A stretch of DNA of 64,000 nt from a virus. Position numbers and translations under genes: made by a program. The stretch is taken from positions 64,001 to 128,000 of IMG/VR virus record IMGVR_UViG_3300045974_000166; one strand, given 5' to 3'. Shown in pieces: positions 28,195 through 51,116 of this stretch (positions within the stretch are counted from its first letter, which is position 1; the number at the start of each line of letters is the position of its first letter). The notes below the pieces were generated by a model that saw only the letters and a program-made list of their open reading frames with translations, was not told the origin of the DNA and searched no databases.

Positions 28195-28631
28195 GTACAC
28201 CAAAAGTAGAAGCATCACTGAGTTCTATATTCAATGTCGATCTTCAAGAAGTAGATCCAAATCGTTCTCTGGCAGAACTACAGGCAGAGGCACAGGCTAA
28301 ATCGATAGATAGTCTTGAATCTCAAAGAGATTATGTAAAGGCTAATCTGGTAAAACTTATTGAGCGTGGAATGGTTGCCGTAGGTGATCTCAATACTATT
28401 GCAAACTCTACGGAAAAATCTCGTGACTTCGAAGTTATGGCGGGACTCATTAAGACGTTAGTAGAAACCAATGTTGAGCTCCTCAACGTAGAAGTTGCTC
28501 ATAAACCAAAACTTGGTATTCCTGGTGCAAACGGCCAAGAAGCAACAACGATTAACAATAATACAGTATTTGTAGGACAGACAAAAGATTTGGCGGCATA
28601 TCTGAAATCTACCAATGTGATTGATAATTAA
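28191..28631 (+). CDS. gp16: Terminase small subunit gp16
   Basis: DYVKANLVKLIERG..RDFEVMAGLIK..NNNTVFVGQTKDL. Confidence 0.85.
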   Translation: MSTPKVEASLSSIFNVDLQEVDPNRSLAELQAEAQAKSIDSLESQRDYVKANLVKLIERGMVAVGDLNTIANSTEKSRDFEVMAGLIKTLVETNVELLNVEVAHKPKLGIPGANGQEATTINNNTVFVGQTKDLAAYLKSTNVIDN

Positions 28632-28637
28632 ACTTTA

Positions 28638-28645
28638 ATTAAATA
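28638..28645 (+). promoter_or_regulatory. Late promoter-like motif ATTAAATA
   Basis: Intergenic, at the head of the internal-protein block. Confidence 0.6.
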
Positions 28646-28678
28646 ATGATATTGCAACACATTAATCGATGAACTAAT

Positions 28679-29749
28679 ATGACTAAGACTTTAAGAGAAC
28701 GGTATCTAAATAATGAGATTCTTTTGATAGGGGAAATTGTAAAAGATCAGACTACAGGTGAAGACGTAAAAATTCTTGACCGCGGTTCAAATTACGTTAC
28801 AGTTGAATCATCGGCGGGAATCCAGAAAAAATGGATACAAGATGTCATTTCCGAATCGGAACCGGAAACTAAAGTCGAGCACATAGTAGAGGAAGATTTT
28901 ACCCTTCTTGAATCTGGCCAAGTTAAACTTTTTGGGTTTGAAACTCAAAATTTCTGTGTAGAACTCTCGTCATTCATCATTGAACAATTTAAAGAATTCG
29001 ACGATTTATACTCCAAGCATCAGATCATCAAACTATTGGATTATGCTCTTACCGAATCTAATATTGACAAGAAGTACGAAAATCTAGAAAAGATTAGTGC
29101 CTTCTATAAAAATAATTCAATCCAAGAACCTCTAATTGTCGAAGGCCTTAAGAATTCAATTGAACGTCTTCGTTTGGCACAGATCGTAGCTTCTATTGCC
29201 GAAATTGATACTAAACCAAGCCCATACGAAACCGTAAAGGATGCTGTTACTGCTCTTAGAAAGAAGTATACAGATCCTAAGCAGTGGCAAGTATTATGGC
29301 CATTTTTCCGTATGGTAGATGCCTCGGGCATCACTGGTATTCTTCAGATGCTTCCTTTCAAACCAACAGCACAGACACCGGTAGGCCAATCATCTAGAGT
29401 AACAGAAGAAATTCTTTCTATGATGGAAGAAAATGTTGATGAATTATTTGAGTCTCTTTGCGTTGAAGATATAATGGAAACATACTCTGCAGATGAACTA
29501 GTTGAGGCATGGGCAGTCAAAGGTTTAGATGTACTTACTCCTGCCGTAAATACTTCCGTCCTATCTGATAGAACTAAGAAACTTGCCGATACTATGATTG
29601 CACGGAGAATGTTCCAAAAATCAATGCCAGACTTAACTTCAGATGATAAGAACACATTTGGTGAAACAGTTAACCGCCGCAAACTATTGGTAGCACAACT
29701 TGCACAAAAACTACTACCAAAAGTTAAGGCTCTACAGGAAACACCATGA
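28679..29749 (+). CDS. Hypothetical head-associated protein
   Basis: N-terminal LRERYLNNEI..GEIVKD..ILDRGSNYVTV..KKWIQDV domain; from recall it resembles the C-terminal domain of T4-like 'cytidyltransferase' proteins. Confidence 0.55.
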   Translation: MTKTLRERYLNNEILLIGEIVKDQTTGEDVKILDRGSNYVTVESSAGIQKKWIQDVISESEPETKVEHIVEEDFTLLESGQVKLFGFETQNFCVELSSFIIEQFKEFDDLYSKHQIIKLLDYALTESNIDKKYENLEKISAFYKNNSIQEPLIVEGLKNSIERLRLAQIVASIAEIDTKPSPYETVKDAVTALRKKYTDPKQWQVLWPFFRMVDASGITGILQMLPFKPTAQTPVGQSSRVTEEILSMMEENVDELFESLCVEDIMETYSADELVEAWAVKGLDVLTPAVNTSVLSDRTKKLADTMIARRMFQKSMPDLTSDDKNTFGETVNRRKLLVAQLAQKLLPKVKALQETP

Positions 29750-30897
29750 AAACATTTCTAGAATATTTAGCAGAGCAAGCAGAGTCAGATGGTAAACTCA
29801 AACATCTCCAGCACCTAGAAGATCTACATGTCGACCATGGCCAATCTGGCTTTAAGCACGCAGCTGGTGAACTTGACCGCGTAAAGAAACATGTAGAATC
29901 TGGTAAGACATCCTCTTCCCTAACTCAAAAGATTGATGGTTCTCCAAGTATTGTTATGGGTCATCACCCACAGTCTGGTAAGTATTTTGTCGCATCTAAA
30001 TCTGCATTCAATAAAACTCCAAAGCTTAACTATACTCATGCCGACATTGAAAAGAACCACGGCCATGCACCCGGTCTAGTGGAGAAACTTAAATCTGCTC
30101 TTGACCACGGCCATAAGATTCTACCAAAGCATGGTGTGTTTCAAGGTGACGTGCTTCACTCCGGTACAGATGTAAAGCATGGCAAGACTACTGCTACATT
30201 CAAACCTAACACGATCGAATATACAGCCCATGGTGCCGAAGCTGATAAGGTGAAGAAATCTAAGTTTGGTGTAGCTCTGCACACAGAATATCATGGCAAG
30301 ACTCTAGATGATATGCATGCCGAGCCTATTAAAGATCACTCTAAGTTTTCTCACCACGAAGATGTCTATTCGCCTTCTGTTGCATATAAGTCTGCCGGTA
30401 AGAAAATGTCTCCAGATGATAACCAAAAATTTCATGAGCATATAGCTGCTGCAAAGACCGCACACGAAAAGACTAACTACTCTCATATTTCTCCACACAA
30501 AGAACATATTAACACTTATATCAATCAAACAGTGAGATCTGGTGAAAAGCCAACTCACGAAGGATATGTAAAGCACTTAGAAGCGATTAAGACAAAAGCC
30601 GTAGGGTCTGTTAAGACAGAGAAAGCTAAAGCAGCTAAGGCTGATCTACATCAGTCTACAATCAATGCTGCGCAGGGTGATCATAAAGAATCTATTACTC
30701 ATGCTTTAAAATCTCACCATCATCTTCAGGCTGCCAAAGATCTGCTCGTGAAGCACATGGACCATTCAGCCGAAGGCCTTGAGGCAAAAATTAATGGTAA
30801 GAAAGTTGGCCCAGAAGGCTATGTGTCTAACCACGCAGGTAAATCAACAAAATTCGTTAACCGTGCCGAGTTCTCTCGTGCAAATTTTCAGAGATAA
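29746..30897 (+). CDS. Capsid-targeted, His-rich ligase/nucleotidyltransferase-like protein
   Basis: CTS-like MKTFLEYLAE; TQKIDGS (K62), FQGDVL, PEGYV and TKFV motifs. Confidence 0.6.
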   Translation: MKTFLEYLAEQAESDGKLKHLQHLEDLHVDHGQSGFKHAAGELDRVKKHVESGKTSSSLTQKIDGSPSIVMGHHPQSGKYFVASKSAFNKTPKLNYTHADIEKNHGHAPGLVEKLKSALDHGHKILPKHGVFQGDVLHSGTDVKHGKTTATFKPNTIEYTAHGAEADKVKKSKFGVALHTEYHGKTLDDMHAEPIKDHSKFSHHEDVYSPSVAYKSAGKKMSPDDNQKFHEHIAAAKTAHEKTNYSHISPHKEHINTYINQTVRSGEKPTHEGYVKHLEAIKTKAVGSVKTEKAKAAKADLHQSTINAAQGDHKESITHALKSHHHLQAAKDLLVKHMDHSAEGLEAKINGKKVGPEGYVSNHAGKSTKFVNRAEFSRANFQR

Positions 30898-30899
30898 AA

Positions 30900-31868
30900 A
30901 TGATAACATTCAAAGAATACCTATCGGAAGTAGCAATCAGTGGCACTGGCCTGAATGGCGAAAGACATTTAGCTAAATATGTGACACCACATCTAGGATC
31001 TTCTAACTTTACACATACTCTGGCAAGAAATCATGGTGATCTAGAACCGGGTTCTAAAGTTAAATTGCACAAAGTAGAAAACATAAAAGGTGTTACTCAT
31101 GTCCACGCAGAAGATGAATCTGGCCACAAACATGTAATACCAGTTACTAAACTACATAAACCTGGTACTCAAAAAGAAAATGCCGGCCATAAGTATGAAA
31201 ATGATTTTATCACTCATCTTAAGAAACATGGTGTTATGCCAGAACATTTGTCTGGCGCAGGGTCCACCGCAGGTACCGATTTCCAAGTAGAACATAGAAA
31301 ACTCAAAAGGAACCATGCTGGTAAAGTTCAAGGTAGTATGTTGAATGGTGAAACTAAGAATGGTGTGACTGGTGCTATGGGTCAGATCACAATTCACCAT
31401 GATCCTAAAAAGGGTGGCTGGCATATTCCAGATGATGCCCGTGCTAAGAGACCTAAGTATGCCGCCGAAGTTGAAAAAGCCGGTGTTTTGAAGCATATGA
31501 ATAAACACTATAACCCAGATAAGCATGACATTAAAACTACCGATTCGGGTAGAGCTCAATCTGTATACATTAAACATCCAAATCTAGAACCAGGCCATGC
31601 TTATCTGCAAGATCACCACGTGCATATCCTACAAGTTGGTGGTCATGGTACGTACCGTGTTGGCGATAAAGACCACACAGGCCATGGACTTCCAGCAATC
31701 TCCGGTAAAGGTAAATGGACTGTCCGTGAGAAACAAGCAGGAAATAAGAAGGCACGTACAGTTATGTTCCAACCAGATGGTAAAGCCGGTCTTGACAAAT
31801 CTCATGTAGATCTAGATAAACCAGATCATATCGAAGCATTCAAGAAGACTTTGGGAATTACTAAATGA
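30900..31868 (+). CDS. Capsid-targeted His-rich protein with PD-(D/E)xK-like motif
   Basis: CTS-like MITFKEYLSE; KYENDF..TDF..GETK. Confidence 0.5.
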   Translation: MITFKEYLSEVAISGTGLNGERHLAKYVTPHLGSSNFTHTLARNHGDLEPGSKVKLHKVENIKGVTHVHAEDESGHKHVIPVTKLHKPGTQKENAGHKYENDFITHLKKHGVMPEHLSGAGSTAGTDFQVEHRKLKRNHAGKVQGSMLNGETKNGVTGAMGQITIHHDPKKGGWHIPDDARAKRPKYAAEVEKAGVLKHMNKHYNPDKHDIKTTDSGRAQSVYIKHPNLEPGHAYLQDHHVHILQVGGHGTYRVGDKDHTGHGLPAISGKGKWTVREKQAGNKKARTVMFQPDGKAGLDKSHVDLDKPDHIEAFKKTLGITK

Positions 31869-32647
31869 AAACCACAGTGATGGCATTTGGCAGGATGTCT
31901 CCAGTTACGGCTGGCCACGCCAAGTTAGTACAGAAGGTGAAGGATACTGCTGCTGAGCATAAGGCAGATCACAAGATCATTCTGTCTCATACTCAAGATG
32001 CCAAAAAGAATCCGCTGCATGTTGATGACAAGGTTCGCTTTGCCAAGCATTACTTCCCGGGCACTCATATCGAGGGTGCCTCTAAAGAACATCCTACATT
32101 CTTACACCACGCTAAGAAACTATCAGACGAAGGCACAGAACACCTAGTCATGGTAGCTGGTTCTGACCGTGCCAAGGAATACCATGACATCCTGCACAAG
32201 TACAATGGCCCTGGTAAGAATCATAACTTCAAGAAGATTACAGTAGTTTCTGCTGGTGAACGTGATCCAGATGCCGAAGGCACCGAAGGTATGTCCGCTT
32301 CCAAACTTCGTGCTCATGCCGTTGCCGGCCACTATAAAGAATTCAAATCTGGTCTACCTAAGGGTGATGAAAAGATCCACAAAGAAATGTACCACAAGGT
32401 TCGCTCTGGCCTGAAACTAGAATGCTTCATCTATCGTGCTAAAGGCCTAGTTATGGAATATGCTGTATCCAAACATGCATCGGCAGCTGCAGAAGTTGAG
32501 CATTTACTTAGTAATGATCCTGGTAACAAAGATCTAATCGACTTAGCTCTCAAACATCATAAGCGTGCCGTTGCTGCTGCCACTTCTGAGACCGAAAAGA
32601 AATATCATTCAGACAAAATAGCCAAATTAAATAGACAATGCTCATAA
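31865..32647 (+). CDS. Cytidylyltransferase-like (HIGH-class Rossmann nucleotidyltransferase)
   Basis: FGRMSPVTAGHAKL, KNPL, MVAGSDR and ERDPDAEGTEGMSASKLR motifs. Confidence 0.85.
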   Translation: MKTTVMAFGRMSPVTAGHAKLVQKVKDTAAEHKADHKIILSHTQDAKKNPLHVDDKVRFAKHYFPGTHIEGASKEHPTFLHHAKKLSDEGTEHLVMVAGSDRAKEYHDILHKYNGPGKNHNFKKITVVSAGERDPDAEGTEGMSASKLRAHAVAGHYKEFKSGLPKGDEKIHKEMYHKVRSGLKLECFIYRAKGLVMEYAVSKHASAAAEVEHLLSNDPGNKDLIDLALKHHKRAVAAATSETEKKYHSDKIAKLNRQCS

Positions 32648-32657
32648 GGATTTCATA

Positions 32658-34847
32658 ATGCAACTAGAAAAACACATTAACATCACAAAGACTCCAAACG
32701 GAGCTATTGTTTCTTTCGGCGGACAGGTTTGTCTCACTATCTCCGAGATGGGAACAGAATTCTTCTGGTCTGCTTCTCCTGTGTTTGCTAAGTTAACTTA
32801 TGGTGCATCCACTTTCTCCGATTTGCCAAGATCTTGGACTGGTCATTCTACAATGGCCGAAGCAATTGCAGATGGTCTTAACAAACTAGATGAAATGAAG
32901 GCATTCTATGGTATAGTAGATTTGGCCGATGACACGTATGGTGACAAGCTGAACGAATCGGAAGAACTAGACGAAGATACTTATAAAGATAAATCTAATT
33001 CTGCTTGGGAAAAAGTTCATGCAAAATCTAAAGGTCCAGTAGATAGATTTATCACAAGAGTTGCTGCTAGAGTATTAGATAAAACTAAAATTGATAGAAA
33101 AACTGGCAAAGTAGTTCAATCGGAAGAAGTGGTTGAACTAGAATTTGATCAAGCTGCTATCGTTGAAGCACTTGCCTCTATCAAGGAAGATTGCCGTGTC
33201 GAAGCACTGAGAATGTCCGATTCTCTTCTTGAAGCACAACAACTTGCCAATGAACTCTTTGAAGACATCACAGAAGAATATCTGAATGAATTGTCTAAAG
33301 CTACTTTGGGTTCATATGCTAAAAAGGCTGCTACAGATGCAGCATATAAAGAATTGAATGCTGGTCAAATGGGTATTAATAGAGCTGGTGGTTTTGGTTA
33401 TGCGGCTGACAAGAAAGCAAAAAAACGGCTACAAGGTGTCCATACTGCAGTTAATAAACTTACAGAAGTAGAAGAACTTGACGAAGTTTGGGCTGGTCCT
33501 AACCCAGACAAGCAACCAAAATCCTATGTCGCTAAACTGAAGGCTAAGAATACTGGCAAACAAGCTCCAGCTACCGATATTAAGTTCGATGACCATGAAA
33601 AACTTGGTGTGTGGAAGCGTAATGCCGGCCAAGGTGAGATGATTCTTCGTAAACACAAAAAGACAGGTCAGCACGAAATTGTTGCCAACAATGACCAGTT
33701 CTCTCATGTAGCATATCCTGACTCTGAAGCCGCAGGTAAGAAATATCTCAACTTGCTAGGCAAACTTCAAGAAGAAGAACTCGATGAATACTTTGTTCCA
33801 TATCTTTTGAAAGGCAAACAAAAGCCTTATGTGTCTTCTCTCGGCCCTGGCCATTATGAAGTTCTTGGTAATGTCGGTCAGGTAAAGGCGACATTTACCC
33901 GAGCAACACACGGTAAAGATGCTCATGCTATGGCTCAAAAACATCTAAGAGCTAAGTACAACGAATACATGGCCGAAGAAGTAGAAGTACTCGATGAAGC
34001 AAGATTCGGAATGGACGACATTGCCGTTGGTGGCACCGTTATCTATAAGACTCTGAAGGGTGACCACAAGATGTCTAAGGTACGCAACAAGGGTAATGGT
34101 TTTGCTCTGCACCTACAAGACGGTTCGACTATTCAGAATCATGCCGTTAGATCTACCGATGCTTCCGATTGGAAACACTTCGAAAACTTGAAGGAAGAAG
34201 TTCTAGATGAAAAGCTTGACCGCCATGGCGATTTCCACCGGTCTGTTGAAAATGGCATTTTTGCACATTCTAAACATCTCGATACTACTAAGAAATATTT
34301 GCATGACAAAGACACAAGAGGCAGCGACGGTCTCTCTATGCAATTAGCTACATTTGACCACGAAAAACATGCACAAGCAGCTGCTAAGAAACATGGTGGC
34401 AGAGTGGAACGTACTGATTTTGGAACTTATAGAGTTACCGAAGAAGTTCTTGATGAAGCAACTCGCCCACTATCCGGTGATGCATACTGGAAGTCCAAAG
34501 AAGTAGAGTCTAAGGAAGAATATCTTAAGGCTCAACGCAAAGCTCTAGGTCTTCCAGAGCCAGTGAAACGCGGCCGCGGCAAACCAACTAACATCGACCG
34601 TGACCTTCTTAAGACTCGTGCTCACTCCAATGTAGAGGCAGGCAAACGTCCAACAGCTGGTTTCGACCGTAACGAGAAGATCCACTTCGTTCGCCATCTT
34701 AAGGATCATCCAGACTTTGCAGAAAAGCATGTGTCACAAGCAGGCCGACCTGTTGGAACGACTAAGGTTGCCTCTCAACAACAAGCTTTGGTTAAGAAGA
34801 AACAAGACACGGCCTTCTCTATGTGGGCAGGATTGGGTAAGAAATGA
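32658..34847 (+). CDS. Modular putative internal head polyprotein 1
   Basis: Basic/His-rich modules separated by EELDE/EEVLDE/EYLNE linkers; AT-hook-like KRGRGKP near the C-terminus. Confidence 0.6.
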   Translation: MQLEKHINITKTPNGAIVSFGGQVCLTISEMGTEFFWSASPVFAKLTYGASTFSDLPRSWTGHSTMAEAIADGLNKLDEMKAFYGIVDLADDTYGDKLNESEELDEDTYKDKSNSAWEKVHAKSKGPVDRFITRVAARVLDKTKIDRKTGKVVQSEEVVELEFDQAAIVEALASIKEDCRVEALRMSDSLLEAQQLANELFEDITEEYLNELSKATLGSYAKKAATDAAYKELNAGQMGINRAGGFGYAADKKAKKRLQGVHTAVNKLTEVEELDEVWAGPNPDKQPKSYVAKLKAKNTGKQAPATDIKFDDHEKLGVWKRNAGQGEMILRKHKKTGQHEIVANNDQFSHVAYPDSEAAGKKYLNLLGKLQEEELDEYFVPYLLKGKQKPYVSSLGPGHYEVLGNVGQVKATFTRATHGKDAHAMAQKHLRAKYNEYMAEEVEVLDEARFGMDDIAVGGTVIYKTLKGDHKMSKVRNKGNGFALHLQDGSTIQNHAVRSTDASDWKHFENLKEEVLDEKLDRHGDFHRSVENGIFAHSKHLDTTKKYLHDKDTRGSDGLSMQLATFDHEKHAQAAAKKHGGRVERTDFGTYRVTEEVLDEATRPLSGDAYWKSKEVESKEEYLKAQRKALGLPEPVKRGRGKPTNIDRDLLKTRAHSNVEAGKRPTAGFDRNEKIHFVRHLKDHPDFAEKHVSQAGRPVGTTKVASQQQALVKKKQDTAFSMWAGLGKK

Positions 34848-35284
34848 TTATTGACGAACTTAAAGTAACACTGGCCAACCACATTGAGTCGGCCCTGACC
34901 GTCTGGGGTTATCACTGGAATATCGAAGGAGTTGATTTCAACCAATATCATACATTCTTCTCTGAGATTTATAACGAATACTTTGATCAAGTAGATACGC
35001 TAGCCGAATATGTCCGAATTGTATCAAAAGCCGAGGAATATGTGAATGCTTCGGTTGATGTGGTGAAAGCTAATAAGACCGTGAAGAGTAAAATTGTTGT
35101 AGGTTCTAAACCAAAAGAAATGGTGAAAGAAATCCTTGTACTCAATGATGCTCTTCTAGCAGATATGGCTAATATGTTCAAATTGTCAACCGCAGCGGGT
35201 GAGCAAGGTTTGGCTAACTACTGCGCTGGTCAAATGGATGTATATGAAAAACTTCGTTGGAAACTCCTAACTGTGGCAAAATGA
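34844..35284 (+). CDS. dps: Dps/ferritin-like protein
   Basis: HWNIEGVDFNQYHTFFSEIY..VDTLAE Dps signature; C-terminal YEKLRWKL. Confidence 0.85.
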   Translation: MIIDELKVTLANHIESALTVWGYHWNIEGVDFNQYHTFFSEIYNEYFDQVDTLAEYVRIVSKAEEYVNASVDVVKANKTVKSKIVVGSKPKEMVKEILVLNDALLADMANMFKLSTAAGEQGLANYCAGQMDVYEKLRWKLLTVAK

Positions 35285-35688
35285 AAACATTCAAAGAATA
35301 CCTAACTGAAGCCGAAGAGTTTGACTCTGGGAATATCCACCCCAGAGATCTACCAAAGCATCTTACTCCAGGTGAGATTAAAAGTATTCAGAAGCATCCA
35401 TACTTTAAAGAATATGTAGGCAACTATGTTCCGGGTGGGACGGTTGCTGCTCGTGTAACTAAGGACCGTGCTGGCTTCAAGAAAGTATACATGGGCAACT
35501 CCCAAGTCCTAGATACTACTCATGGTAAGATTCGGCGTATGGTGCAATTCGATATGAAGTACTCTGGTCACTCAGTCGACAATGCTCATTTGCACCACAA
35601 CGTAGATGGCAAGCGCCACACCCATGGCAATAAGAATATCTGGTGGGACCACATTAAATCACATAAGAACTACGAGAACGAAAAATGA
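35281..35688 (+). CDS. Capsid-targeted internal protein
   Basis: Starts MKTFKEYLTE at ATG 35281, overlapping the dps stop (ATGA). Confidence 0.65.
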   Translation: MKTFKEYLTEAEEFDSGNIHPRDLPKHLTPGEIKSIQKHPYFKEYVGNYVPGGTVAARVTKDRAGFKKVYMGNSQVLDTTHGKIRRMVQFDMKYSGHSVDNAHLHHNVDGKRHTHGNKNIWWDHIKSHKNYENEK

Positions 35689-37934
35689 CAGATCAAATCG
35701 ACGAACTAAGCAACAACACTCTTCAATCTGTGGCAAAGAAACGTGCCGATCAGTCTAAAGAGGCAGGTGGTATTGGTGTGAATAATCCTACTCGTGCCAA
35801 GGCTATGGATCTTCTTCGGAAGTCCGATAATGCTAAGTATCGGCACACAGAACATCCATCTAAGGTAACTCCAAAGACTCCTGCTCCAGCACCTACCGAA
35901 GCCGATAAAGCAGCTCATGCTAAGGCAAACAAAGCCAAGGTAGATTCTCAGAACAACCGCGGCTATGGCGAAGGCCGATACATGGGTGATTCAGTAGAGC
36001 AGACGGAAGTTGAAGATCAGATTGACGAACTCTCAATGGACACAGTGAAGTCATACAAAGATAAGGTTAAAGCAAATCCTGCTCCATCTAAGACTACTCA
36101 CAACATTCTACACAAAGCTATTCGTAGATTTGCCGGTAAAGAACGTGCCGAAGATCGTATTCATTCAGATGAAATGAAGAAGATGCGTGAACGGCTAGGT
36201 CTGAAGAACGAAGAAGTTCTAGACGAAGATATTGGTTCTAGTATCAAGAAGGGTATCAAAAGCGTTAAACGCGGTTTTCAAGGTTGGGCAGATACAAGAA
36301 TGACACCCGGAAGTATTCAGAAAAGAACTAAAGAACTTACGGATGATGAATTGGCCGACCAAAGAGCTCAAAGAGATGAGCCAGGAAATACAGAACCCGG
36401 AAAACACTCACCTGTGGGTTTACAACGGCGACTACATGACAGAGAAAAAAGAAAACGTGATCTAGCTAATGAAGAAGTTATCACCGAAGGTGCTGGCATT
36501 GGTGATCTAGTCAAGTTCCACAAAATTGCCGGTATGAACGGTCATAGATATGCTCAAATATCTGGTTTCATTATGTCTAAGAAAGACGGTAACATTGATC
36601 CTATGACTGGCCGGGTTCATGGTACAGCTACTCACTATGTGGCTAAACTCAAGAAAGACCCACTGAACACAGTAAACTTCACCCCAGATGTTCATATCCC
36701 AGTTGGTGATGTGCATAAGGTAGATCAGTACGCCGAGATTCAGAACCACAAGGCCAAACAGAAGATGCTTGGCAAGATCAAGGGTGAGTCTATAGACGAA
36801 GAAGTTACATTCTCTGGCAAAGGTGCCAATGGTGTGCAATATAAAATCATCAAAACCGGTGATGATCATGCCATCCATGCAAACGGTAAACACATTGACA
36901 CCTACGGTTCTCACCAACGCGCTATGAGTGTTCTCAAGAATGAAGTTCCAGGTTTAAAAGCAGACCTAAAGGAAGAAGTTCTAGACGAAGATGCCGCTCA
37001 GAAGAATATGGGCCATGCAATGGATACTATTGAACCAAGCAAAAGAGATGCTGCTCGGAAACAATACGGAGCTGCCCGGTCTAAGGGTCTAACCCATGCA
37101 TCTTCTATTAGCCTAATGCACCAACGTTTTGGTGGCACAAATGAAGAAGTAGACGAAGCATTTGAAAAGCCAAAAGCCGCAAAGACTAAAGAAATTGAAA
37201 AGTCCGACAATGCTGCTCATGCTCGACTTAATAAGCCAATGCCAATTCAAAAACCAATACGAGTTGAAGAAGTAGAACAAATAGAAGAACTTTCTAATGA
37301 AACTCTTAAAAGTTACGTTAGCAAATCAAACAAGCATCGCACTCAAGCTTCGGTCGAACATCTAGGACAAGGTAAGTGGGATCCTAAGTTTGTTGATAAA
37401 ATGGATCGTAGAGCCGATCATTCCATAAAAGCTTATCATAAAATCAAGAATAAGCATTCAATGACTACCGAAGAAGTTGTAGATGAGGAAGTCAAAACAG
37501 AAAAGCCTAAGCACAAGGTTGGTGATACCGTTTGGGCAACTTCACCTACCAACAAAGCACTTACAATGACTGGCAAAGTTACAAAAATCGGTGTCACGCT
37601 AACTACCGTGAAGCATAAAGATGGTTCAGAAGCTCATTATCCACACAAACTTGTGAATAACGACTACGAAGTTCTACATCCAAATTCAAAGAAATGGCAA
37701 CGTGAACATCTAGAACAGACTGGGGAACTTCTCTCTTTGTCCGAAGTTAAATACATTCTAGAGAATGCAGCAGGAGGCGCTGGTGTCATTGCTCAACATT
37801 CCGGAGTAAATGACAGTGCTCCCCAAGGTACTGGCAGGGTTAAGAAAATGATGGGTAACAAAACTGATGCTGTAGCTATTGCTAAAATCATAGCAAATGG
37901 TGTAGCATCAAAAGAACAGAAAGAAAGTGAATAA
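35685..37934 (+). CDS. Modular putative internal head polyprotein 2
   Basis: About 9 acidic linkers (QIDE, EEVLDE, EEVITE, QIEE, EEVVDE); three ELSxxT(L/V)xS modules. Confidence 0.6.
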   Translation: MTDQIDELSNNTLQSVAKKRADQSKEAGGIGVNNPTRAKAMDLLRKSDNAKYRHTEHPSKVTPKTPAPAPTEADKAAHAKANKAKVDSQNNRGYGEGRYMGDSVEQTEVEDQIDELSMDTVKSYKDKVKANPAPSKTTHNILHKAIRRFAGKERAEDRIHSDEMKKMRERLGLKNEEVLDEDIGSSIKKGIKSVKRGFQGWADTRMTPGSIQKRTKELTDDELADQRAQRDEPGNTEPGKHSPVGLQRRLHDREKRKRDLANEEVITEGAGIGDLVKFHKIAGMNGHRYAQISGFIMSKKDGNIDPMTGRVHGTATHYVAKLKKDPLNTVNFTPDVHIPVGDVHKVDQYAEIQNHKAKQKMLGKIKGESIDEEVTFSGKGANGVQYKIIKTGDDHAIHANGKHIDTYGSHQRAMSVLKNEVPGLKADLKEEVLDEDAAQKNMGHAMDTIEPSKRDAARKQYGAARSKGLTHASSISLMHQRFGGTNEEVDEAFEKPKAAKTKEIEKSDNAAHARLNKPMPIQKPIRVEEVEQIEELSNETLKSYVSKSNKHRTQASVEHLGQGKWDPKFVDKMDRRADHSIKAYHKIKNKHSMTTEEVVDEEVKTEKPKHKVGDTVWATSPTNKALTMTGKVTKIGVTLTTVKHKDGSEAHYPHKLVNNDYEVLHPNSKKWQREHLEQTGELLSLSEVKYILENAAGGAGVIAQHSGVNDSAPQGTGRVKKMMGNKTDAVAIAKIIANGVASKEQKESE

Positions 37935-37936
37935 TT

Positions 37937-38263
37937 ATGTCTTATATGAGAACCAAACCGCGGTGGTGTCCCACGGTTGAAGCAACTGAACAAGGTTGGA
38001 TAAATAGTCTAAATGGAGAGCTTTTAGTTTCTCTTCGCAATTTGAAATCATTATTAGCCTTAGAACAAGCCGCACTAGATGCTGCTGCAGCAACTATCCC
38101 AAAAGAGGTCCCTATGCAAGTAATTAAAGAAGAAGTAGTTCCAGTTGTCGCCGAAGTTCAAGTACCAGTTACTGAAGAAACTATCAAAAAGCCAAAGAAG
38201 AAACAAAAAATTCTTGGTGAAGTAGTTGAATTTCCTGTTGACGCACAAGTTATTGGTGAATAA
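37937..38263 (+). CDS. Hypothetical protein
   Basis: PRW..TVEATEQGW..GELLVSLR; coupled to both neighbours. Confidence 0.55.
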   Translation: MSYMRTKPRWCPTVEATEQGWINSLNGELLVSLRNLKSLLALEQAALDAAAATIPKEVPMQVIKEEVVPVVAEVQVPVTEETIKKPKKKQKILGEVVEFPVDAQVIGE

Positions 38264-38655
38264 TGGCTGATACCAAAATCTCGGCTTTTACACCAGTTGT
38301 AACCCTTGGTCCAACCGATATATTTCCTATTGTACAAGGTGGCGTCAACAAATTTGCTACAATAGGGCAAATATCTAATCTAGCAGTTGCTGGTACCCAA
38401 GTTGTGACGACGTCGGCAGGAATTCCTGTAGCAGTTAGTTCAGATGTTGTGTTAGTTTCTTCGGCAGCCACACTAGGTTCTGGCACTGTTTCTGGAAAGA
38501 AATTAACAATTGTAGCTACTGGCCCCGGATCTATTGCATTTACTGCATCCTCAGTTCCAGTATTATATACTTATGCTGCCGGGTCTACTATGTCTTTAGT
38601 TTGGGCAAATTCTACTTGGAACATTCTGTCTATTTTTAATATGACACGTGTCTAA
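38263..38655 (+). CDS. Putative virion structural protein
   Basis: MADTKISAFTP..TDIFPIVQGG N-terminal motif; beta-rich. Confidence 0.5.
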   Translation: MADTKISAFTPVVTLGPTDIFPIVQGGVNKFATIGQISNLAVAGTQVVTTSAGIPVAVSSDVVLVSSAATLGSGTVSGKKLTIVATGPGSIAFTASSVPVLYTYAAGSTMSLVWANSTWNILSIFNMTRV

Positions 38656-38999
38656 TGATTCAAAACGACCAACATTTTTTGCTTCATGCATTTAAAGCGT
38701 ATGATAATCCTAGGATGATTTCTACTACCGAATTTGATGCAGATCTAAAAAGATTTGGTTACCTGAATACAATGCTTTCAAAGTATTCTAAAGATAAAGA
38801 TGAAGTTAAACTTAGAACATGTGTAAATCATATTGTTATAATTTCAAACTGTTTTTGTGAAGCATCTCTTGAACTCATAAGATATAAGATGCTTGAGGAA
38901 AACAGATCTATTACTGAGTCTATCATGTACTTTCTTAAAATGACGGATGACAAAGATTACGTGGATTTTAGCCTATTAAATACATTAGAACAACTATGA
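38655..38999 (+). CDS. Conserved T4-like hypothetical protein
   Basis: AFKAYDNP..EFDADLKRFGYL..LRTCVNHIVIISN motif. Confidence 0.6.
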   Translation: MIQNDQHFLLHAFKAYDNPRMISTTEFDADLKRFGYLNTMLSKYSKDKDEVKLRTCVNHIVIISNCFCEASLELIRYKMLEENRSITESIMYFLKMTDDKDYVDFSLLNTLEQL

Positions 39000-39166
39000 A
39001 CAACCAACAAGAATTAAAAGAAGATGGAGCAGTAGTAGCTCCCGGTAACGTTACTGCTGGAGTTGAAGGCCCAAAGCTTCCAATAAAACCAGCAAATGTC
39101 TTTAAGAGAGTTCAACTTCTTAAGAAGAAAAAAGATACGATCGAACCCAAAGTTCCATCTAATTAA
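38996..39166 (+). CDS. Small 56-aa protein not in the ORF track (MNNQQELKEDGAVVAPGNVTAGVEGPKLPIKP...)
   Basis: Translated by hand; overlaps the previous stop; has an LKE site; ATTAAATA at 38975-38982 lies just upstream. Confidence 0.6.
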   Translation: MNNQQELKEDGAVVAPGNVTAGVEGPKLPIKPANVFKRVQLLKKKKDTIEPKVPSN

Positions 39167-39169
39167 ATA
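39162..39169 (+). promoter_or_regulatory. Late promoter-like motif ATTAAATA
   Basis: Upstream of gp18. Confidence 0.65.
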
Positions 39170-39200
39170 ATAAGTATAGAATTAAATCGGAGTATAAAAT

Positions 39201-43097: not shown

Positions 43098-44987
43098 ATG
43101 AATTTCCTAGACCAAATCTATCAAGACAAAGAAGAAGCTAAAGCCACTCTTACCAACGTGCTAAACCAAAAAGCATTTAGCCTACTAGATACATATGCCG
43201 ACAATTCGGAAGTTGAAGTAGTTACTTTTGAAGATGAAGAAGTTGCCAACGAAGAATTTGAACTTGAAGGTGTCGAACTCACCGAAGAACAACTCAACGA
43301 ATTTGAAGGTCTTAATTACACCATCGGTGGTAAAGTAGATAAAGATCATGTGTACCATGTACACCGTCAATCGAGAACAGCCAATGGCCCAGAATGGGAG
43401 CACCATGAACGCGACGTCTATCATTCGTTAGCCGATGCAAAGAAAGTTGCCGCAAATATGGGTGGTAAGTTTACAAAAACCAAAATCACTCGTCATGCTC
43501 GTACTAAACTGGCTGGTCCAGTTGGTAAACTTCCAGAAGGAGTTGAAGAACTCGACGAAGGTCTAGGTTCTCTTGCTGGTCTTTCCAAGCACCTTATCAA
43601 AACAGTTACTAAAGATCCATACTCTGGTCGTAAAGCAGGTGAACACTCAGATGTGGTGACTCACCCAATTAAGAACAAATCGGCACATCGTGAAGTACTT
43701 AACAAAGCGCTCGATGACGGTCATGTACCAGTTGTGTATGTAAACGGTAAGATTCACTCGGCCGGCCACTCTACTGGTTCTTCATATGGTCGTCCTGAGT
43801 ATCATATCCATGATGCAGACAAGCAAAAAGAACAAAAAGAAACTAAGTATCCAAAGGCCTACAAATCTGGTGGTAAGTATATCTATCCTCCATCACATCA
43901 AATTTCAAACCCTCGGTATAAGAAGGGTGATGCACTTGATCAATTGACTCCGGGTCATGAAGCTTCGTTCTACAAGGAAAACAAGGTCGAAGTTAAAGTT
44001 ATTCATCCAGACAAAGAACGCCTGGCAAAAATGAAGGCTCGTGGTGACAATCGTCCTCCAATGCAAGCCAACACAGTCAAGATGACTCCAGACGAAAAAG
44101 CTAAAAAGGGGTATTCTTACTCTGATTCTAAGACTGTTTCGCATACGCCAGAAGGCAACATGAAGGCAATCAAGGATGCAGCTGCACTTAAACTTGCCAC
44201 ACAGAAACTTGGTACCTCCGGTTCATCTGCCAATAAGAAGGCTATGGAACTTCATGCCGAACTTGGTAAACACCTTGCTGCTGGTAAACACACAGAAGCC
44301 ATCCGTGCTGCCAATGCTCTTTCCGATCATGTCCGTTCACAAGGTCTAGAAACTCATGCCGACAAGATCAAAGACTATGCTAGCACACTGAAAGATCTGA
44401 AGAATAACTGGGGCAACAAAGAATATGCTCACCAGAAACTTGCCAAGATGCGCGGTGAAAAGACCAATGAAGCAGAAGAATTGGTAGATGCTTTGGAAAC
44501 TATGCTTACTGAGATGTTGGACATCAATGAAGCAACTACGGTTGATAATACAGCAACAGCACTCCATACAGTATTGATCAATCAACATGCTAAAACTCCA
44601 GGTCATGGTCTAGATAAATTAGCTAATAGTGTTAGATCTTCTGTTTCTAAAGCTACATCACCTTTGGATCTTCATGCACGCCATGCAGCCGCTGTAAAGA
44701 AAATTGAAGCACATTACACAGAACACAATCTAGGTAAACCTGCTCTTCAAGGTGCAAAGTCTTGGCTTCCAAAAGCTAATGAAGAAGTAGATGAAGATGC
44801 CGAACAGATTGACGAACTCTCTAAAAAGACTCTTAAGTCTTACATCAAAAAAGCTAAGGCAGATTTTAAAGCTAAGACATCATATGACGACCATGACGGT
44901 TATGATTTTGCCCCAGGTGTATCACCTCAGAAAATGATGAAACGTTCAGAAACTATTGATGCTGCTAAAGCACAAGTAAAGAAATAA
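43098..44987 (+). CDS. Prohead core protein (gp67-like N-terminus) fused to modular basic domains
   Basis: Acidic N-terminus directly after gp20, then modules separated by QLNE, EELDE, DINE, QIDE. Confidence 0.6.
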   Translation: MNFLDQIYQDKEEAKATLTNVLNQKAFSLLDTYADNSEVEVVTFEDEEVANEEFELEGVELTEEQLNEFEGLNYTIGGKVDKDHVYHVHRQSRTANGPEWEHHERDVYHSLADAKKVAANMGGKFTKTKITRHARTKLAGPVGKLPEGVEELDEGLGSLAGLSKHLIKTVTKDPYSGRKAGEHSDVVTHPIKNKSAHREVLNKALDDGHVPVVYVNGKIHSAGHSTGSSYGRPEYHIHDADKQKEQKETKYPKAYKSGGKYIYPPSHQISNPRYKKGDALDQLTPGHEASFYKENKVEVKVIHPDKERLAKMKARGDNRPPMQANTVKMTPDEKAKKGYSYSDSKTVSHTPEGNMKAIKDAAALKLATQKLGTSGSSANKKAMELHAELGKHLAAGKHTEAIRAANALSDHVRSQGLETHADKIKDYASTLKDLKNNWGNKEYAHQKLAKMRGEKTNEAEELVDALETMLTEMLDINEATTVDNTATALHTVLINQHAKTPGHGLDKLANSVRSSVSKATSPLDLHARHAAAVKKIEAHYTEHNLGKPALQGAKSWLPKANEEVDEDAEQIDELSKKTLKSYIKKAKADFKAKTSYDDHDGYDFAPGVSPQKMMKRSETIDAAKAQVKK

Positions 44988-44996
44988 GAGAAAAAT

Positions 44997-45539
44997 ATGC
45001 GAGTTACAACTTTACCCCGTGTAATTACTATTTCTAGTGCAACTTCGGATGCCACTACGACTACGATAACTACGACTGCATCTCACCTAATGGTAACGGG
45101 GGATGTAGTATCATTTCCTGGTTCTGTAAGTTTTAGAACAGCTACTGTTACTGGTGCAACAACTTTCACTGTGTTGAACCTTCCGACTACTGTCGGCCAA
45201 TCTTTAATCTATACACCAACGGGTGAAGTTTACATCAATGAACTCCGGACTGCTCTAGATGTATCACGTGCTATGGAAGCACCTTCATCTGCTAACAACT
45301 CATCTACTTTCCAAGTCATTGGCTCAACTACTGCAGCAGCAGGTGCCGTTTCTGTTGACATTGAAGTATCAAACAACAATGTTAACTGGTTGAAATTTTC
45401 GACGATTTCTTTAGTTCTTGCTACAACTGCTGCTACAGATGGAGTTGTATTAGATGCACCGTGGGGCTTTGTCCGCGCTAAAGTTGCATCAATCTCTGGT
45501 ACCGGCGCTAAAGTAACAGTTTTGCTTGGTAAGAATTAA
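44997..45539 (+). CDS. Putative head decoration/structural protein
   Basis: Thr/Val-rich beta protein inside the head module; VDIEVSNNNVNW. Confidence 0.45.
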   Translation: MRVTTLPRVITISSATSDATTTTITTTASHLMVTGDVVSFPGSVSFRTATVTGATTFTVLNLPTTVGQSLIYTPTGEVYINELRTALDVSRAMEAPSSANNSSTFQVIGSTTAAAGAVSVDIEVSNNNVNWLKFSTISLVLATTAATDGVVLDAPWGFVRAKVASISGTGAKVTVLLGKN

Positions 45540-47285: not shown

Positions 47286-47618
47286 ATGAATAAAGAATTA
47301 AAACCAATCCAAGAAGCATATAATCTTATGCTTGAAAGTTCTTTTGCCGCGGCAAACAAAATAGAGCACCCTGTCGAAAAACAGTGGCATCACTCAATTT
47401 TGTCTAAACACGGCTTTGAGCCAGATGAAGATTCAAAAGTAAAAACAGGTTTAGTTCGTTCATATAGTTATACTCATCCAAAAACTGGTGATAAAATTAA
47501 AGTAGCTACCGGTGCAAATGCTGATTATTGGGATGACAAGAAAAACAACAAACATGGCTATTGGCGCGAACTGGAATCGCATGCAAAGTCTCTAGTTGCT
47601 GCACACGAAGGTAAATAA
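47286..47618 (+). CDS. Small putative internal head protein
   Basis: N-terminal IQEAYNLMLE, then a basic/His-rich domain. Confidence 0.55.
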   Translation: MNKELKPIQEAYNLMLESSFAAANKIEHPVEKQWHHSILSKHGFEPDEDSKVKTGLVRSYSYTHPKTGDKIKVATGANADYWDDKKNNKHGYWRELESHAKSLVAAHEGK

Positions 47619-47619
47619 G

Positions 47620-48270
47620 ATGAAATTCCTCACAGAAGTATTAAATGATCCATTAAGTCTCTTGATGGAAGCTGGTGCCGATGGCAAAAAGAACTTGTAC
47701 ATTCAAGGTCCATTTGCCGTGGCCGAATCAAAGAATAAAAATGGTCGCATCTATAAGAAGGAAATTCTTGAAGCTGCTATCAACAAGTATGACACAGATT
47801 ATATCAAGAACGCCAAGGCACTAGGTGAGATGAATCACCCACCACGTCTGAATATTGACTACGAACGTGCCACCCACATGATCACAGAGATGAAACAAGA
47901 TGGTAACATCTGGATCGGTAAAGCTAAGGTGTTAAATACACCCATGGGCTCGATCCTGAAGGGTTTGCTTGAGTCTGGTGTGAATGTTGGTGTTTCTACT
48001 CGTGGTGCTGGTTCTATTACCGAAGCCAATGGTATTAAACATGTCGGTTCGGACTTTTTCCTAACTGCTGTTGATGCTGTATCTGATCCTTCCGGTCCAG
48101 GTTGCATAGTAAATGGTATCATGGAAGGCTATGAATATGATCTAGACTCAAAAGGTCAGGCGATCATCGAAGACATTGCAGCACGCGCCAAGAAAGATTA
48201 CGACAAGAAGGTACTTACGGAAGCACGTAAGATTGAGTTATTCAAACAGTTATTGGAAGCTATCAAATGA
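47620..48270 (+). CDS. gp21: Prohead protease gp21
   Basis: NKNGRIY..ALGEMNHP..GVSTRGAGS..DAVSDPS; ATG at 47620. Confidence 0.95.
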   Translation: MKFLTEVLNDPLSLLMEAGADGKKNLYIQGPFAVAESKNKNGRIYKKEILEAAINKYDTDYIKNAKALGEMNHPPRLNIDYERATHMITEMKQDGNIWIGKAKVLNTPMGSILKGLLESGVNVGVSTRGAGSITEANGIKHVGSDFFLTAVDAVSDPSGPGCIVNGIMEGYEYDLDSKGQAIIEDIAARAKKDYDKKVLTEARKIELFKQLLEAIK

Positions 48271-48685: not shown

Positions 48686-49732
48686 ATGACCCTAGAAGAA
48701 CGAATCAAACAAATGCTTGAAGAAAGCACAAAGCAAGTAACTCCTGAAGTTGTTGCCGAAGAAATTGTTGAAGAAACTACTTCGCTTACAGAAGAAGAAC
48801 TTGATGAAATGACTCAAGAAGAATTTGATGCTATTGATGAAGAACAATTGGACGAATTGTCTAAAAAGACTTTGAAGTCTTATATCAAAAAAGCAGATCG
48901 CCAAAACTCTAACATGGATGTTGATGACCAAGCTGGTTTTAACAAATATATGAAGAGAAGCGATAATATTGATAGAGCAGAGGAAAAGCTAAATCCTAAA
49001 CGGAAAACCGAAAGTGCAGAAGTTTCTTCACAAGTAGCCGCCCTTCTTGAAGCTGAAGGTCTCTCAGAAGAATTCAAAATGCAAGCTGTAACGATTTTCG
49101 AAGCAGCTGTAACAGATCGCGTACTTCAGATCCAAGAAGAAATGGAAGCTGAATACAACGAAAAACTCGACGAAGCCAAGGCCGAACTCGAAACAAATAT
49201 TGATGGATTTTTGAATGAAGCTGTCCAGGAATGGGCAGATAATAATGAAGTAGCAATTGAGTCTAACTTCAAGATGCGCCTAGCAGAAAGTTTCATGGAT
49301 GGTCTTCAGTCACTATTGGCTGAACACAATATTGATCTGCCAGATGAATCAGAAGATGCGCTCGAAATTGCATTAGATGAAGTTAATAAACTTGAAGAAC
49401 AAGTCTCGAGTACAGATGAAGTGATTGCTGAATTGCAAGAACAAATCGACACTCTAAAGGCTGAAAAGATTCTTGAGTCATTCAAAGAAAAGATGACTGG
49501 CACAGAATTTGATCGCTTCGTTCAATTGACGGAGTCTGTTAAGTTTAAAGACGAAACTCAATATGCTAAACAACTCAGCATTGTGCTAGAGAATTTTGGT
49601 AAGATTGCCGCAAAGAAGGTAGAACAAACAGAACAGATCGTTGAAGAAGTTGCAGCACCAGTTGCTCAACCAATCGTCACCGAATCATTCTCTTCAGTTA
49701 ACCGCTACGCACAATATCTTGCCAAGAAGTAA
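48686..49732 (+). CDS. gp22: Prohead scaffolding protein gp22
   Basis: GLSEEFKMQAVTIFEAAV..NEVAIESNFK..ESFMDGLQSLLAEHNIDLP; directly before gp23. Confidence 0.92.
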   Translation: MTLEERIKQMLEESTKQVTPEVVAEEIVEETTSLTEEELDEMTQEEFDAIDEEQLDELSKKTLKSYIKKADRQNSNMDVDDQAGFNKYMKRSDNIDRAEEKLNPKRKTESAEVSSQVAALLEAEGLSEEFKMQAVTIFEAAVTDRVLQIQEEMEAEYNEKLDEAKAELETNIDGFLNEAVQEWADNNEVAIESNFKMRLAESFMDGLQSLLAEHNIDLPDESEDALEIALDEVNKLEEQVSSTDEVIAELQEQIDTLKAEKILESFKEKMTGTEFDRFVQLTESVKFKDETQYAKQLSIVLENFGKIAAKKVEQTEQIVEEVAAPVAQPIVTESFSSVNRYAQYLAKK

Positions 49733-49772: not shown

Positions 49773-51116
49773 ATGGCAGTTCAAACCGTAGAACAATTAA
49801 TGGAAAAATGGGCACCAGTGCTCGACGCTGAAGGCGTAACTCCAATCACTAACATGCACAAACGTCAAACGACAGCTGTGCTCTTGGAAAATACCGAACA
49901 AGATATTATCCAAACTCGTCAACTCTTGTCTGAAGCAGCTCCAGGTTCACAAACCCAAGGCTACCCAACAGACGGTACCGGTCTTTCTAAGTTCGACCCA
50001 GTGTTGATCTCCATGGTTCGCCGTGCAGCTCCACAAATGTTGGCTTATGACATCTGCGGCGTTCAGCCACTACGTCAGCCTACAGGTTTGATCTTTGCAT
50101 TGCGTAGCCGCTACGGTGCACAATCAGGTGCTGAAGCTCAGTTCCTTGAAGCTAACGCAGCATTCTCTGGTGCTGCTGGTACTTCTCCTGGTACTTCTAC
50201 TGGTGCTGGCCAAGCTTTGTACACTAGCGATCCAACCAACGACTTCGTATTCTCTGACCAAGATCCAACTGCTACTACCTCGACAGCAATTGTTGCTCCA
50301 GGTCAAGGCCTAACGACTCAGGTCGGCGAAACTTTGGGTTCGACAGGTCCAGCATTTGCTGAAATGTCTTTCACCATTGAACAAATGTCTGTTACTGCTA
50401 AGACTCGCGCATTGAAGGCTGGTTACTCAGTTGAATTTGCTCAAGACGTTAAGAACCTACACGGTCTTGATGCTGATGCAGAATTGAGCAACATTCTTTC
50501 AACCGAAATCTTGTCTGAAGTGAATCGTGAAGTTCTTCGCACTATCTATCTTAGCGCTAAGGTTGGTGCCCAAGGAACTACTGTTGCTGGTATCTTCAAC
50601 TTGACCGCTGACTCTGATGGCCGTTGGTTGGCAGAACGTCATAAAGGTCTGTTGTTCCAAATCGAACGTGAAGCTAATGCTATCGCTCAAGAAACTCGTC
50701 GCGGTAAAGGTAACATCTTGGTTTGCTCCAGCGATGTGGCTTCTGCCCTTTCTATGGGTGGTATGTTGGATTATGCTCCAGCCTTGGCAAATGACATCAA
50801 CGTTGACGACACAGGCGCTACATTCGCTGGTGTTTTGAACAAACGTATGCGCGTCTACATTGACCCATATGCTGGTGTTGCCGGTACGAACTCTCAGTTC
50901 TTCATGGTTGGTTACAAGGGTGCTTCCGCTTGGGACGCTGGCCAGTTCTACTGCCCATATATTCCATTGCAAATCGTTCGCACTACTGACCCAGCTACAA
51001 TGAGCCCAGTGCTTGCTTACAGATTGCGTTACGGCATGGCTCGTAACCCATTCTTCAACACTGCTGGTCGTACAAATGCGTACTACCGTATTGCTGCTGT
51101 TCGTAACATCATCTAA
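49773..51116 (+). CDS. gp23: Major capsid protein gp23
   Basis: LMEKWAPVLD..FDPVLISMVRRAAP..GVQP..PTGLIFALR..ELSNILSTEILSEVNREV..YCPYIPL. Confidence 0.98.
   Translation: MAVQTVEQLMEKWAPVLDAEGVTPITNMHKRQTTAVLLENTEQDIIQTRQLLSEAAPGSQTQGYPTDGTGLSKFDPVLISMVRRAAPQMLAYDICGVQPLRQPTGLIFALRSRYGAQSGAEAQFLEANAAFSGAAGTSPGTSTGAGQALYTSDPTNDFVFSDQDPTATTSTAIVAPGQGLTTQVGETLGSTGPAFAEMSFTIEQMSVTAKTRALKAGYSVEFAQDVKNLHGLDADAELSNILSTEILSEVNREVLRTIYLSAKVGAQGTTVAGIFNLTADSDGRWLAERHKGLLFQIEREANAIAQETRRGKGNILVCSSDVASALSMGGMLDYAPALANDINVDDTGATFAGVLNKRMRVYIDPYAGVAGTNSQFFMVGYKGASAWDAGQFYCPYIPLQIVRTTDPATMSPVLAYRLRYGMARNPFFNTAGRTNAYYRIAAVRNII

Follow-up and report, generated by a model that had tools for sequence, protein, structure and literature searches.

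How might a T4-like phage load its capsid with some 20 different small proteins from only three genes? The question is raised by a stretch of 64,000 nucleotides (hereafter the window) that comprises bases 64001–128000 of a 192-kb IMG/VR virus record, and in which three open reading frames (ORFs), A (32658..34847, + strand; 729 amino acids), B (35685..37934, +; 749 amino acids) and C (43098..44987, +; 629 amino acids), are predicted to encode chains of small modules punctuated by short acidic joints. The source is a T4-like myovirus. Its major capsid protein (MCP) shares 61% identity with the MCP of the freshwater Synechococcus phage BUCT-ZZ01 and ∼50% with those of marine cyanomyoviruses. The reading favoured here, to which we would attach a probability of roughly 0.6, is that the chains are built into the prohead core and cut at the joints by the phage's homologue of the gp21 prohead protease, and that the basic pieces are left with the DNA. 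Five features that bear on this were computed directly, namely the restriction of the joint motif to particular proteins, the coincidence of module boundaries with joints, the exchange and reordering of modules, the presence of folded beads, and the dependence of the joint motif on the phage clade.

The coordinates of A, B and C agree with those of the original prediction, in which the ORFs had been described as basic/His-rich modules of 50–100 amino acids separated by acidic linkers ending in L/I/V-x-E. Such linkers, the joints of this study, are indeed present (seven, nine and four in A, B and C, respectively). Those of A delimit modules A1–A8, the last residue before each proposed cut being 106, 211, 276, 377, 447, 518 and 600 (predicted cuts after window bases 32975, 33290, 33485, 33788, 33998, 34211 and 34457), with the acidic, folded A1 (residues 1–106) at one end and A8 (residues 601–729; isoelectric point (pI) 10.2), which contains KRGRGKP, at the other. 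In B the corresponding residues are 7, 115, 181, 268, 372, 435, 491, 535 and 601 (bases 35705, 36029, 36227, 36488, 36800, 36989, 37157, 37289 and 37487), and the modules include B6 (36801..36989, +; residues 373–435, 63 amino acids), B7 (36990..37157, +; residues 436–491) and the conserved C-terminal module B10 (37488..37934, +; residues 602–749). The joints of C, which lies between the genes for the portal gp20 and the protease gp21, end at residues 68, 154, 566 and 573 (bases 43301, 43559, 44795 and 44816), setting apart the acidic C1, a conserved block of 412 amino acids (C3) and C5, which is 44% identical to residues 58–110 of the scaffold protein gp22. In all, 21–23 pieces are predicted, in keeping with the ∼20 anticipated. 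The earlier description of the modules held only in part: 16 of 21 have a basic core (pI > 9), many with 4–10% His, whereas their sizes range from 44 to 148 amino acids (5–16 kDa), apart from the single 412-residue C3, and A1, A2 and C1, which stand at the N-terminal side of their chains, have an acidic pI (4.1–4.8).

The distribution of the joint motif, defined in its strict form as E-[EQ]-x(0-1)-[LIVM]-[DENTQ]-E, was examined across the window and the genome. Within the window, matches occur in A (six), B (six), C (four), gp22 (four) and the ORF at 28679–29749 (one), and in none of 48 other ORFs; genome-wide, 20 of the 24 matches among 857 six-frame ORFs from the 192 kb fall within A, B, C and gp22. 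The gp22 homologue (48686..49732, +; PHROG 237) begins with a clade-specific extension (residues 1–104), the first 57 residues of which hold its four joints, of the EE-x-L-D-E type (predicted cuts after bases 48775, 48808, 48841 and 48856), and which also includes a module with the sequence LSKKTLKSY. In T4, gp21 makes many cuts in gp22 (PMC5694885, PMC9026906); it is a protease that cleaves after the Glu of a short hydrophobic-x-Glu (h-x-E) motif and thereby frees internal proteins of their 10-residue capsid targeting sequence (CTS), MKTYQEFIAE, whose processing is governed by residues 8 and 10 (I-x-E) (PMC8442874, PMC9026906). Replacement of Glu by Asp in the T4 CTS prevents processing and leaves targeting intact (PMC9026906).

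A genome-wide regular-expression search for CTS-like starts returned only those of the genes at 29746, 30900 and 35281, with endings of the form Y-L-A/S/T-E. The h-x-E motif is found also in the MCP gp23 (49773..51116, +), where the predicted maturation site L-L-S-E↓A (↓, predicted cut) follows Glu54 (base 49934), as the original prediction had recognised, and in the gp21-type protease itself (47596..48270, +; PHROG 207, 1.1e-68), as F-L-T-E↓V close to the N-terminus and as V-L-T-E↓A at a distance of 17 residues from the C-terminus. Since their motif is shared with the gp22 N-terminus, the ends of the CTS-like leaders, the gp23 site and the tail of the protease, the joints resemble sites at which the phage's own gp21-type protease would act, and cleavage at them is predicted.

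Several joints are followed directly by a conserved stretch, L-S-x-x-T-L-x-S-Y-x-K-K, of which there is one copy in A, three in B, one at the C-terminus of C and one at residue 58 of gp22, with no further credible copy elsewhere in the genome. The gp22 core that is common to other T4-like phages begins only near residue 105, indicating that the LSxxTLxSY module is a clade-specific addition to the scaffold. We infer that this module would tie the chains to the gp22 core, in place of the missing N-terminal CTS.

The behaviour of the modules among relatives was examined in ten syntenic viral-metagenome loci (loci from metagenomes are designated L) and in about 200 homologues from a protein collection, the architecture of A being drawn from 28 homologues. 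In the syntenic relatives the flanking genes are 70–98% identical, and the homologues of A, B and C differ by whole modules. Each family keeps its ends (A1 and A8; B2/B3 and B10; C1 and most of C3) around a variable middle: A1 and A8 are present in all A relatives while the modules between them vary, and in B the N-terminal gp22-like modules and the C-terminal module (residues 602–749) are conserved. The 1031-residue A homologue of L002, for instance, holds B6 with EEVLDE on both flanks and an unrelated module of 86 amino acids in the place of A7, while its terminal module is 97–98% identical. Modules also cross between families, with A5 found in B-type, C2 in A-type and A3-like modules in C-type proteins, and in L011 and L012 B7 and B3 are adjacent in one frame with B7 first, an order opposite to that in the window. 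Among 145 starts of homologous blocks, taken from the about 200 proteins with B6 set aside, 133 have [LIVM]-x-E within three residues upstream, mostly as LDE, IDE or VDE, against a background of 12.5%. It is at the joints that modules have been inserted or replaced, have changed their order, and have passed from one of the families A, B and C to another. The variation in module order that the original prediction expected is borne out by these cases: module order is not invariant, and both content and order change at the joints from one relative to another. Searches with A, B, C and B6 by DNA and by tblastn against 50,697 GenBank phage records gave no match, so that the polyprotein family is known from metagenomes only.

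The most widespread module is B6, which an exhaustive HMMER search of 1.84 billion representatives found in 71 clusters, always at 53–90% identity, in proteins of 46 to 1866 amino acids and at any position within them. An h-x-E motif lies within 12 residues upstream in 107 of 115 distinct contexts (background 19%), exactly five residues before the block in 99 of those 107, VAE being the commonest form and Gly occupying the position after the predicted cut (P1′) in 87; downstream, h-x-E (VAE or MAE) is present in 113 of 115 contexts, against the same background of 19%. The joints around B6 in these other phages are typically Q-G-V-A-E↓G upstream and G-V/M-A-E↓G downstream, not EEVLDE. The N-terminal leaders of that clade, MIINDLFxNKKxxVAE, end in the same V-A-E, and the genes beside them open with MRAQEFVAE or MFIADLFETYVAE, which closely resemble the T4 CTS. 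B6 is thus conserved while the joint changes with the clade and only hydrophobic-x-Glu stays constant, a pattern to be expected of a protease site and not of a spacer or binding motif. A wider reading, which we hold tentatively and at somewhat less than even odds, is that sites of the head protease would serve as universal joints of a plug-in system for capsid cargo: any small module flanked by the local h-x-E joint would be loaded within a chain bound to the core, from which the prohead protease would free it, modules would move between genes, phages and clades and take on the joint of the recipient (EEVLDE here, GVAE↓G elsewhere), and polyprotein processing would be a common strategy by which large double-stranded DNA phages deliver a changeable protein set along with the genome.

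AlphaFold2 (AF2) models of A and B, built with family alignments, contain confident beads at A1 (residues 1–85), A4 (310–378) and A5 (385–445) in the first chain, and at B6 (373–430), B7 (436–488) and the barrel of B10 (610–660) in the second; B6 is a bead of four strands plus a helix and B7 one of three helices, both with a per-residue confidence (pLDDT) of 91–96. Comparison with VIA-align gave Z scores below the trust level of the tool, and the following are leads only: residues ∼605–665 of B10 resemble a Tudor/chromo-like small beta-barrel, a common fold (Z 5–6.4; root mean square deviation 1.9–4.7), and A4 (Z 7.2) and more weakly B6 (Z ∼5) resemble DNA-binding folds of the WGR/AP2 type, with three strands plus a helix. 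Foldseek against the PDB gave no match at E ≤ 0.001, and a search of the ESM Atlas with C3 was uninformative. PHROG and Pfam searches with the whole proteins A, B and C and ten single modules returned nothing above threshold, the Pfam leads being a weak match of PF24203 to B10, and Ferritin and DUF6267 on neighbouring genes only. PADLOC found nothing relevant, and a PDB sequence search found nothing. A link of individual modules to defence systems thus found no backing in Pfam, PHROG, PADLOC or PDB sequences, the fold matches being weak. In profile–profile comparison with hhalign, only the LSxxTLxSY modules were related to one another; the idea that the modules form a tandem repeat family was rejected on this basis and, as the other modules are mutually unrelated, A, B and C are no simple repeat proteins.

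In the mechanism proposed, A, B and C would be late, head-associated polyproteins of a T4-like phage. They would co-assemble with the gp22 core, perhaps via their acidic N-terminal parts and the gp22-N-terminus-like module [IL]-[DNE]-E-L-S-x-x-T-L-x-S-Y, and once the shell had closed the gp21-type protease would cut every (E)E-x-[LIV]-[DNET]-E joint behind its last Glu, releasing ∼20 small proteins of 5–16 kDa and a single larger one of 45 kDa. If T4 is a guide, acidic pieces would leave the head together with the fragments of the scaffold, whereas those that are basic and rich in His and Lys would remain on the DNA, as the T4 internal proteins do, and could exit with it at infection. Loading, cutting, retention and ejection of the products are what we infer, with ejection and a possible role in counter-defence suggested by analogy to T4 IPI. 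Because the same short joint delimits every module, in-frame exchange at any joint would give a product that could still be loaded and cut, which would account for the way in which modules turn over like cassettes among relatives.

Several observations weigh against this mechanism. The acidic E-E prefix of the joints corresponds to no documented requirement of gp21, and A, B and C start with MQLEKHINIT, MTDQIDELSN and MNFLDQIYQD, respectively, in each case without a CTS. The sequence [IL]-[DNE]-E precedes LSxxTLxSY invariably, and for that reason may belong to the helix of the module instead of being a free site. A head protease and MCP were sought in three records of the second clade of phages that carries B6 and were not found, although these records are 13–65% complete and the result is hence uninformative. 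Finally, AF2 confidence is low at every joint, but since about half of each chain is modelled with low confidence anyway, the position of the joints in low-pLDDT stretches carries little weight.

Could the chains be nothing more than sacrificial filler, extending the scaffolding core in the manner of gp22, gp67 and gp68, to be cut and expelled before DNA packaging with nothing delivered? Module turnover would then reflect weak constraint. The gp22-N-terminus-like modules of A, B and C and the similarity of C5 to gp22 are what such a role would predict, and A1, A2 and C1 are acidic as the T4 core proteins are. The location of C between portal and protease points the same way, being that of gp67 and gp68 in T4. 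It is also the case that T4 core proteins are cut many times and then removed (PMC9026906). However, a number of the modules have confidently predicted folds, the majority of the pieces resemble the T4 internal proteins, which are retained (PMC8442874), in being basic, and module identities of 53–90% across otherwise unrelated proteins of different clades are unlike what would be expected of filler; a purely sacrificial role is considered fairly unlikely. We regard as quite unlikely a second possibility, namely that the chains remain uncleaved and act whole, for example as DNA-condensing beads in the head, with EEVLDE serving as a flexible spacer or as a motif that binds basic modules, DNA-mimic surfaces or the capsid interior. 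The invariable fusion of [IL]-D-E to the LSxxTLxSY helix could be accommodated in this way, and acidic linkers alternating with basic beads could self-associate. Hydrophobic-x-Glu is, however, the sole feature of the joint common to the two clades (EEVLDE versus QGVAE↓G), which better fits a protease site, the N-terminal leaders close with the same ending, and a gp21-type protease is encoded alongside.

That A, B and C are late cytoplasmic proteins outside the virion, their motif directed at another protease or a regulatory interaction, seems highly improbable. Although the cassette does include enzymes without a leader (nucleotidyltransferase-like and Dps-like proteins), the genes lie inside the structural block, their motif is common to the scaffold, and the genes interleaved with them bear CTS-like leaders.

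The favoured reading, that of core-loaded polyproteins cut by the gp21 homologue, has its nearest precedent in T4, where IPI, IPII, IPIII and Alt carry a CTS and are processed by gp21 (Mullaney & Black 1996; PMC9026906, PMC8442874, PMC3012670). Points in common are the T4-like phage with its gp21 homologue, small, basic predicted products that differ greatly from one relative to the next, the hydrophobic-x-Glu form of the proposed sites, and the leaders near MKTYQEFIAE on the interleaved genes at 29746, 30900 and 35281; variable cargo flanked by a short conserved element is familiar from the T4 internal proteins. In T4, however, each gene has one N-terminal CTS and one cut, whereas up to nine joints are present per chain here, and A, B and C lack the N-terminal CTS that is a defining feature of the T4 system. 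Neither is there sequence similarity to IPI–III, tblastn against 50,697 phage records having returned nothing, and anti-GmrSD activity like that of IPI, or anything similar, cannot be ascribed to the modules. Judged by their sequences, A, B and C are more than chains of genes like those of the T4 internal proteins: the system as proposed works like that of the CTS/gp21 internal proteins of T4, but in the form of a multi-cut polyprotein without a CTS.

Other likenesses can be drawn with the T4 core proteins gp22, gp67 and gp68, among them several gp21-type sites per chain, acidic N-terminal parts and, for C, the slot between portal and protease, and the gp22-N-terminus-like module is common to gp22, A, B and C. 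Unlike core proteins, A, B and C match only residues 58–110 of gp22 and not the conserved core from residue 105, give no match to PHROG 237, and consist mostly of basic, folded pieces of variable module content as opposed to acidic coiled coil. In the giant phages phiKZ, 201phi2-1 and SPN3US, gp21-related proteases cut head and inner-body/ejection proteins at several sites (Thomas et al. 2012; PMC5694885, PMC10052503). These systems share with the present one a related protease, cleavage behind the Glu of a short motif, long propeptides with multiple sites, and paralogous variable proteins with conserved N-termini; their extra cuts, however, fall in a discarded propeptide that leaves one mature fragment, whereas in the present chains joints recur along the full length and most pieces are product-like. 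No PHROG or phage tblastn match of A, B or C to the gp93/95/97 or gp53/54 families was found, and fold searches were dominated by single small domains. The polyvalent proteins that phages and conjugative elements encode (Iyer, Burroughs, Anand, de Souza, Aravind 2017; PMC5512222) likewise combine many unrelated domains, from two to 15, in one polypeptide, in a context of virion genes and in highly variable combinations, with predicted packaging, delivery and possible processing into parts; A, B and C together have 21 modules, most of them mutually unrelated. The domains of polyvalent proteins are known enzymes or effectors (ART, MuF, MPTase, ParB-like, primase, kinases and others), often with a metallopeptidase of their own (PMC5512222), as against modules of 44–148 amino acids with no Pfam match, no built-in peptidase and regular joints that match the motif of the prohead protease.

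Polyprotein processing has so far been a hallmark of RNA viruses, and no description of protease-punctuated cargo polyproteins in T4-like phages was found in the literature. If the favoured reading is correct, A, B and C would represent a second and more compact T4-like way to fill a capsid with variable proteins, extending the T4 internal-protein paradigm, in which one gene and one targeting event would yield many products in fixed stoichiometry and the joints would permit exchange without loss of loading or release. The modules would then amount to a sizeable and so far unexplored reservoir of small folded proteins entering the cell along with the DNA, among which proteins for counter-defence or host take-over might naturally be sought. 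The same reading would suggest how several cargoes might be packaged at once in delivery vehicles based on T4, at present limited to a single CTS fusion, and would give a sequence rule, that a clade's own protease motif marks module boundaries, by which hundreds of hypothetical metagenomic phage proteins could be annotated.

At the DNA level, the near-exact recurrence of the linker that had been reported at ∼34195, ∼34440, ∼36210 and ∼36972 was confirmed by four exact matches to the 18-nucleotide sequence GAAGAAGTTCTWGAYGAA, at 34194, 34440, 36210 and 36972, where none would be expected. The identity ends at the 18 nucleotides, which encode EEVLDE in the codon bias of the phage (GAA 82%, GTT 46%). 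As the codons are the preferred ones and the identity goes no further, the linker DNA tells no more than the protein, and conservation beyond the protein was rejected, amino acid conservation together with codon bias accounting for the 18 nucleotides. The linker is a plausible substrate for recombination.

With regard to genomic setting, the order of genes is a gp13-like adaptor (24400), lysozyme, spanin, gp14 (26641), gp15 (27403) and the small terminase subunit TerS, gp16 (28191), then a 10-kb cassette (28679–38999), then sheath gp18 (39201), tube gp19 and portal gp20 (41466), and finally ORF C, two extra genes, protease gp21 (47596), scaffold gp22 (48686) and MCP gp23 (49773). The cassette therefore sits in the late structural block, from TerS gp16 to sheath gp18, with C between portal and protease, and start and stop codons overlap. 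TerS is not adjoined by a gene for the large terminase (28191–39201); the cassette fills the place between gp16 and gp18 where gp17 lies in T4. BUCT-ZZ01, the closest cultured phage, is without the cassette and has two small ORFs only in the interval between portal and protease. As to timing of expression, the T4 late promoter TATAAATA had one match where 4.9 were expected and a sigma-70 scan was below background, neither being informative.

Every cassette protein between 29746 and 38000 is His-rich, at 4–10% compared with ∼0.5–2% in the other structural proteins of the window. Besides A and B, these comprise two His/Lys-rich proteins (29746..31868, +) with the leaders MKTFLEYLAE (DUF6267, 383 amino acids) and MITFKEYLSE (322 amino acids); a His-rich HxGH nucleotidyltransferase-like protein without a leader (31865..32647, +; PHROG 3041, 2e-60), a homologue of which in another clade bears the leader MFIADLFETYVAE; a ferritin/Dps-like protein (34844..35284, +) encoded between A and the gene at 35281; and the stand-alone His/Lys-rich protein of that gene (35281..35688, +; 135 amino acids from the ATG at 35281), with the leader MKTFKEYLTE. 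Homologues of the ferritin/Dps-like protein, 26–30% identical, are encoded 1–2 kb upstream of leader-tagged, B6-containing proteins in the second, unrelated-looking clade (L013, L017, L021, L024, L028, L029 and L030), and the pairing of Dps-like genes with putative capsid-cargo genes is conserved.

The second clade consists of large uncultured phages (one contig is of 225 kb) with runs of genes that carry the leaders MRAQEFVAE, MRAHEFL, MKIRQIVEAAE, MNLYDLFNEEK and MIINDLF (L028:3175–7271, L017:326–1308, L024:643–2396 and L029/L030). Some of the leader-bearing proteins have ParB-like, lysozyme/transglycosylase or HxGH nucleotidyltransferase domains, and to judge from their sequences the genes look like a battery of capsid-targeted proteins adjoining the DNA polymerase gene.

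Around the protease gene of the window, two small His-rich ORFs (47286–47618 and 48267–48593) have starts of the form ...PIQE↓A and ...LISE↓A, respectively. A metagenomic protein of 789 amino acids (P0206) has the N-terminus of the ORF at 48267–48593 followed by bead modules, indicating that the same beads attach to different core-protein heads in different phages. The two genes between C and the protease (44997–47266) encode proteins of 180 and 575 amino acids, the latter assigned to PHROG 5939 ('tail protein'); the pair is missing from L004, L006, L008 and L012, relatives in which the interval between portal and protease is much shorter. The portal gene of the window (41466–43058) is uninterrupted, and those of L006 (6543–7936) and L012 (10797–12181) contain an insert of ∼1.4 kb at the same place, near residue 354, possibly an intron, intein or insertion of a homing endonuclease. 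An insert of ∼0.9 kb is present also after residue 66 of the DUF6267 gene in L007 (3609–4513), the homologue of that at 29746–30897 of the window.

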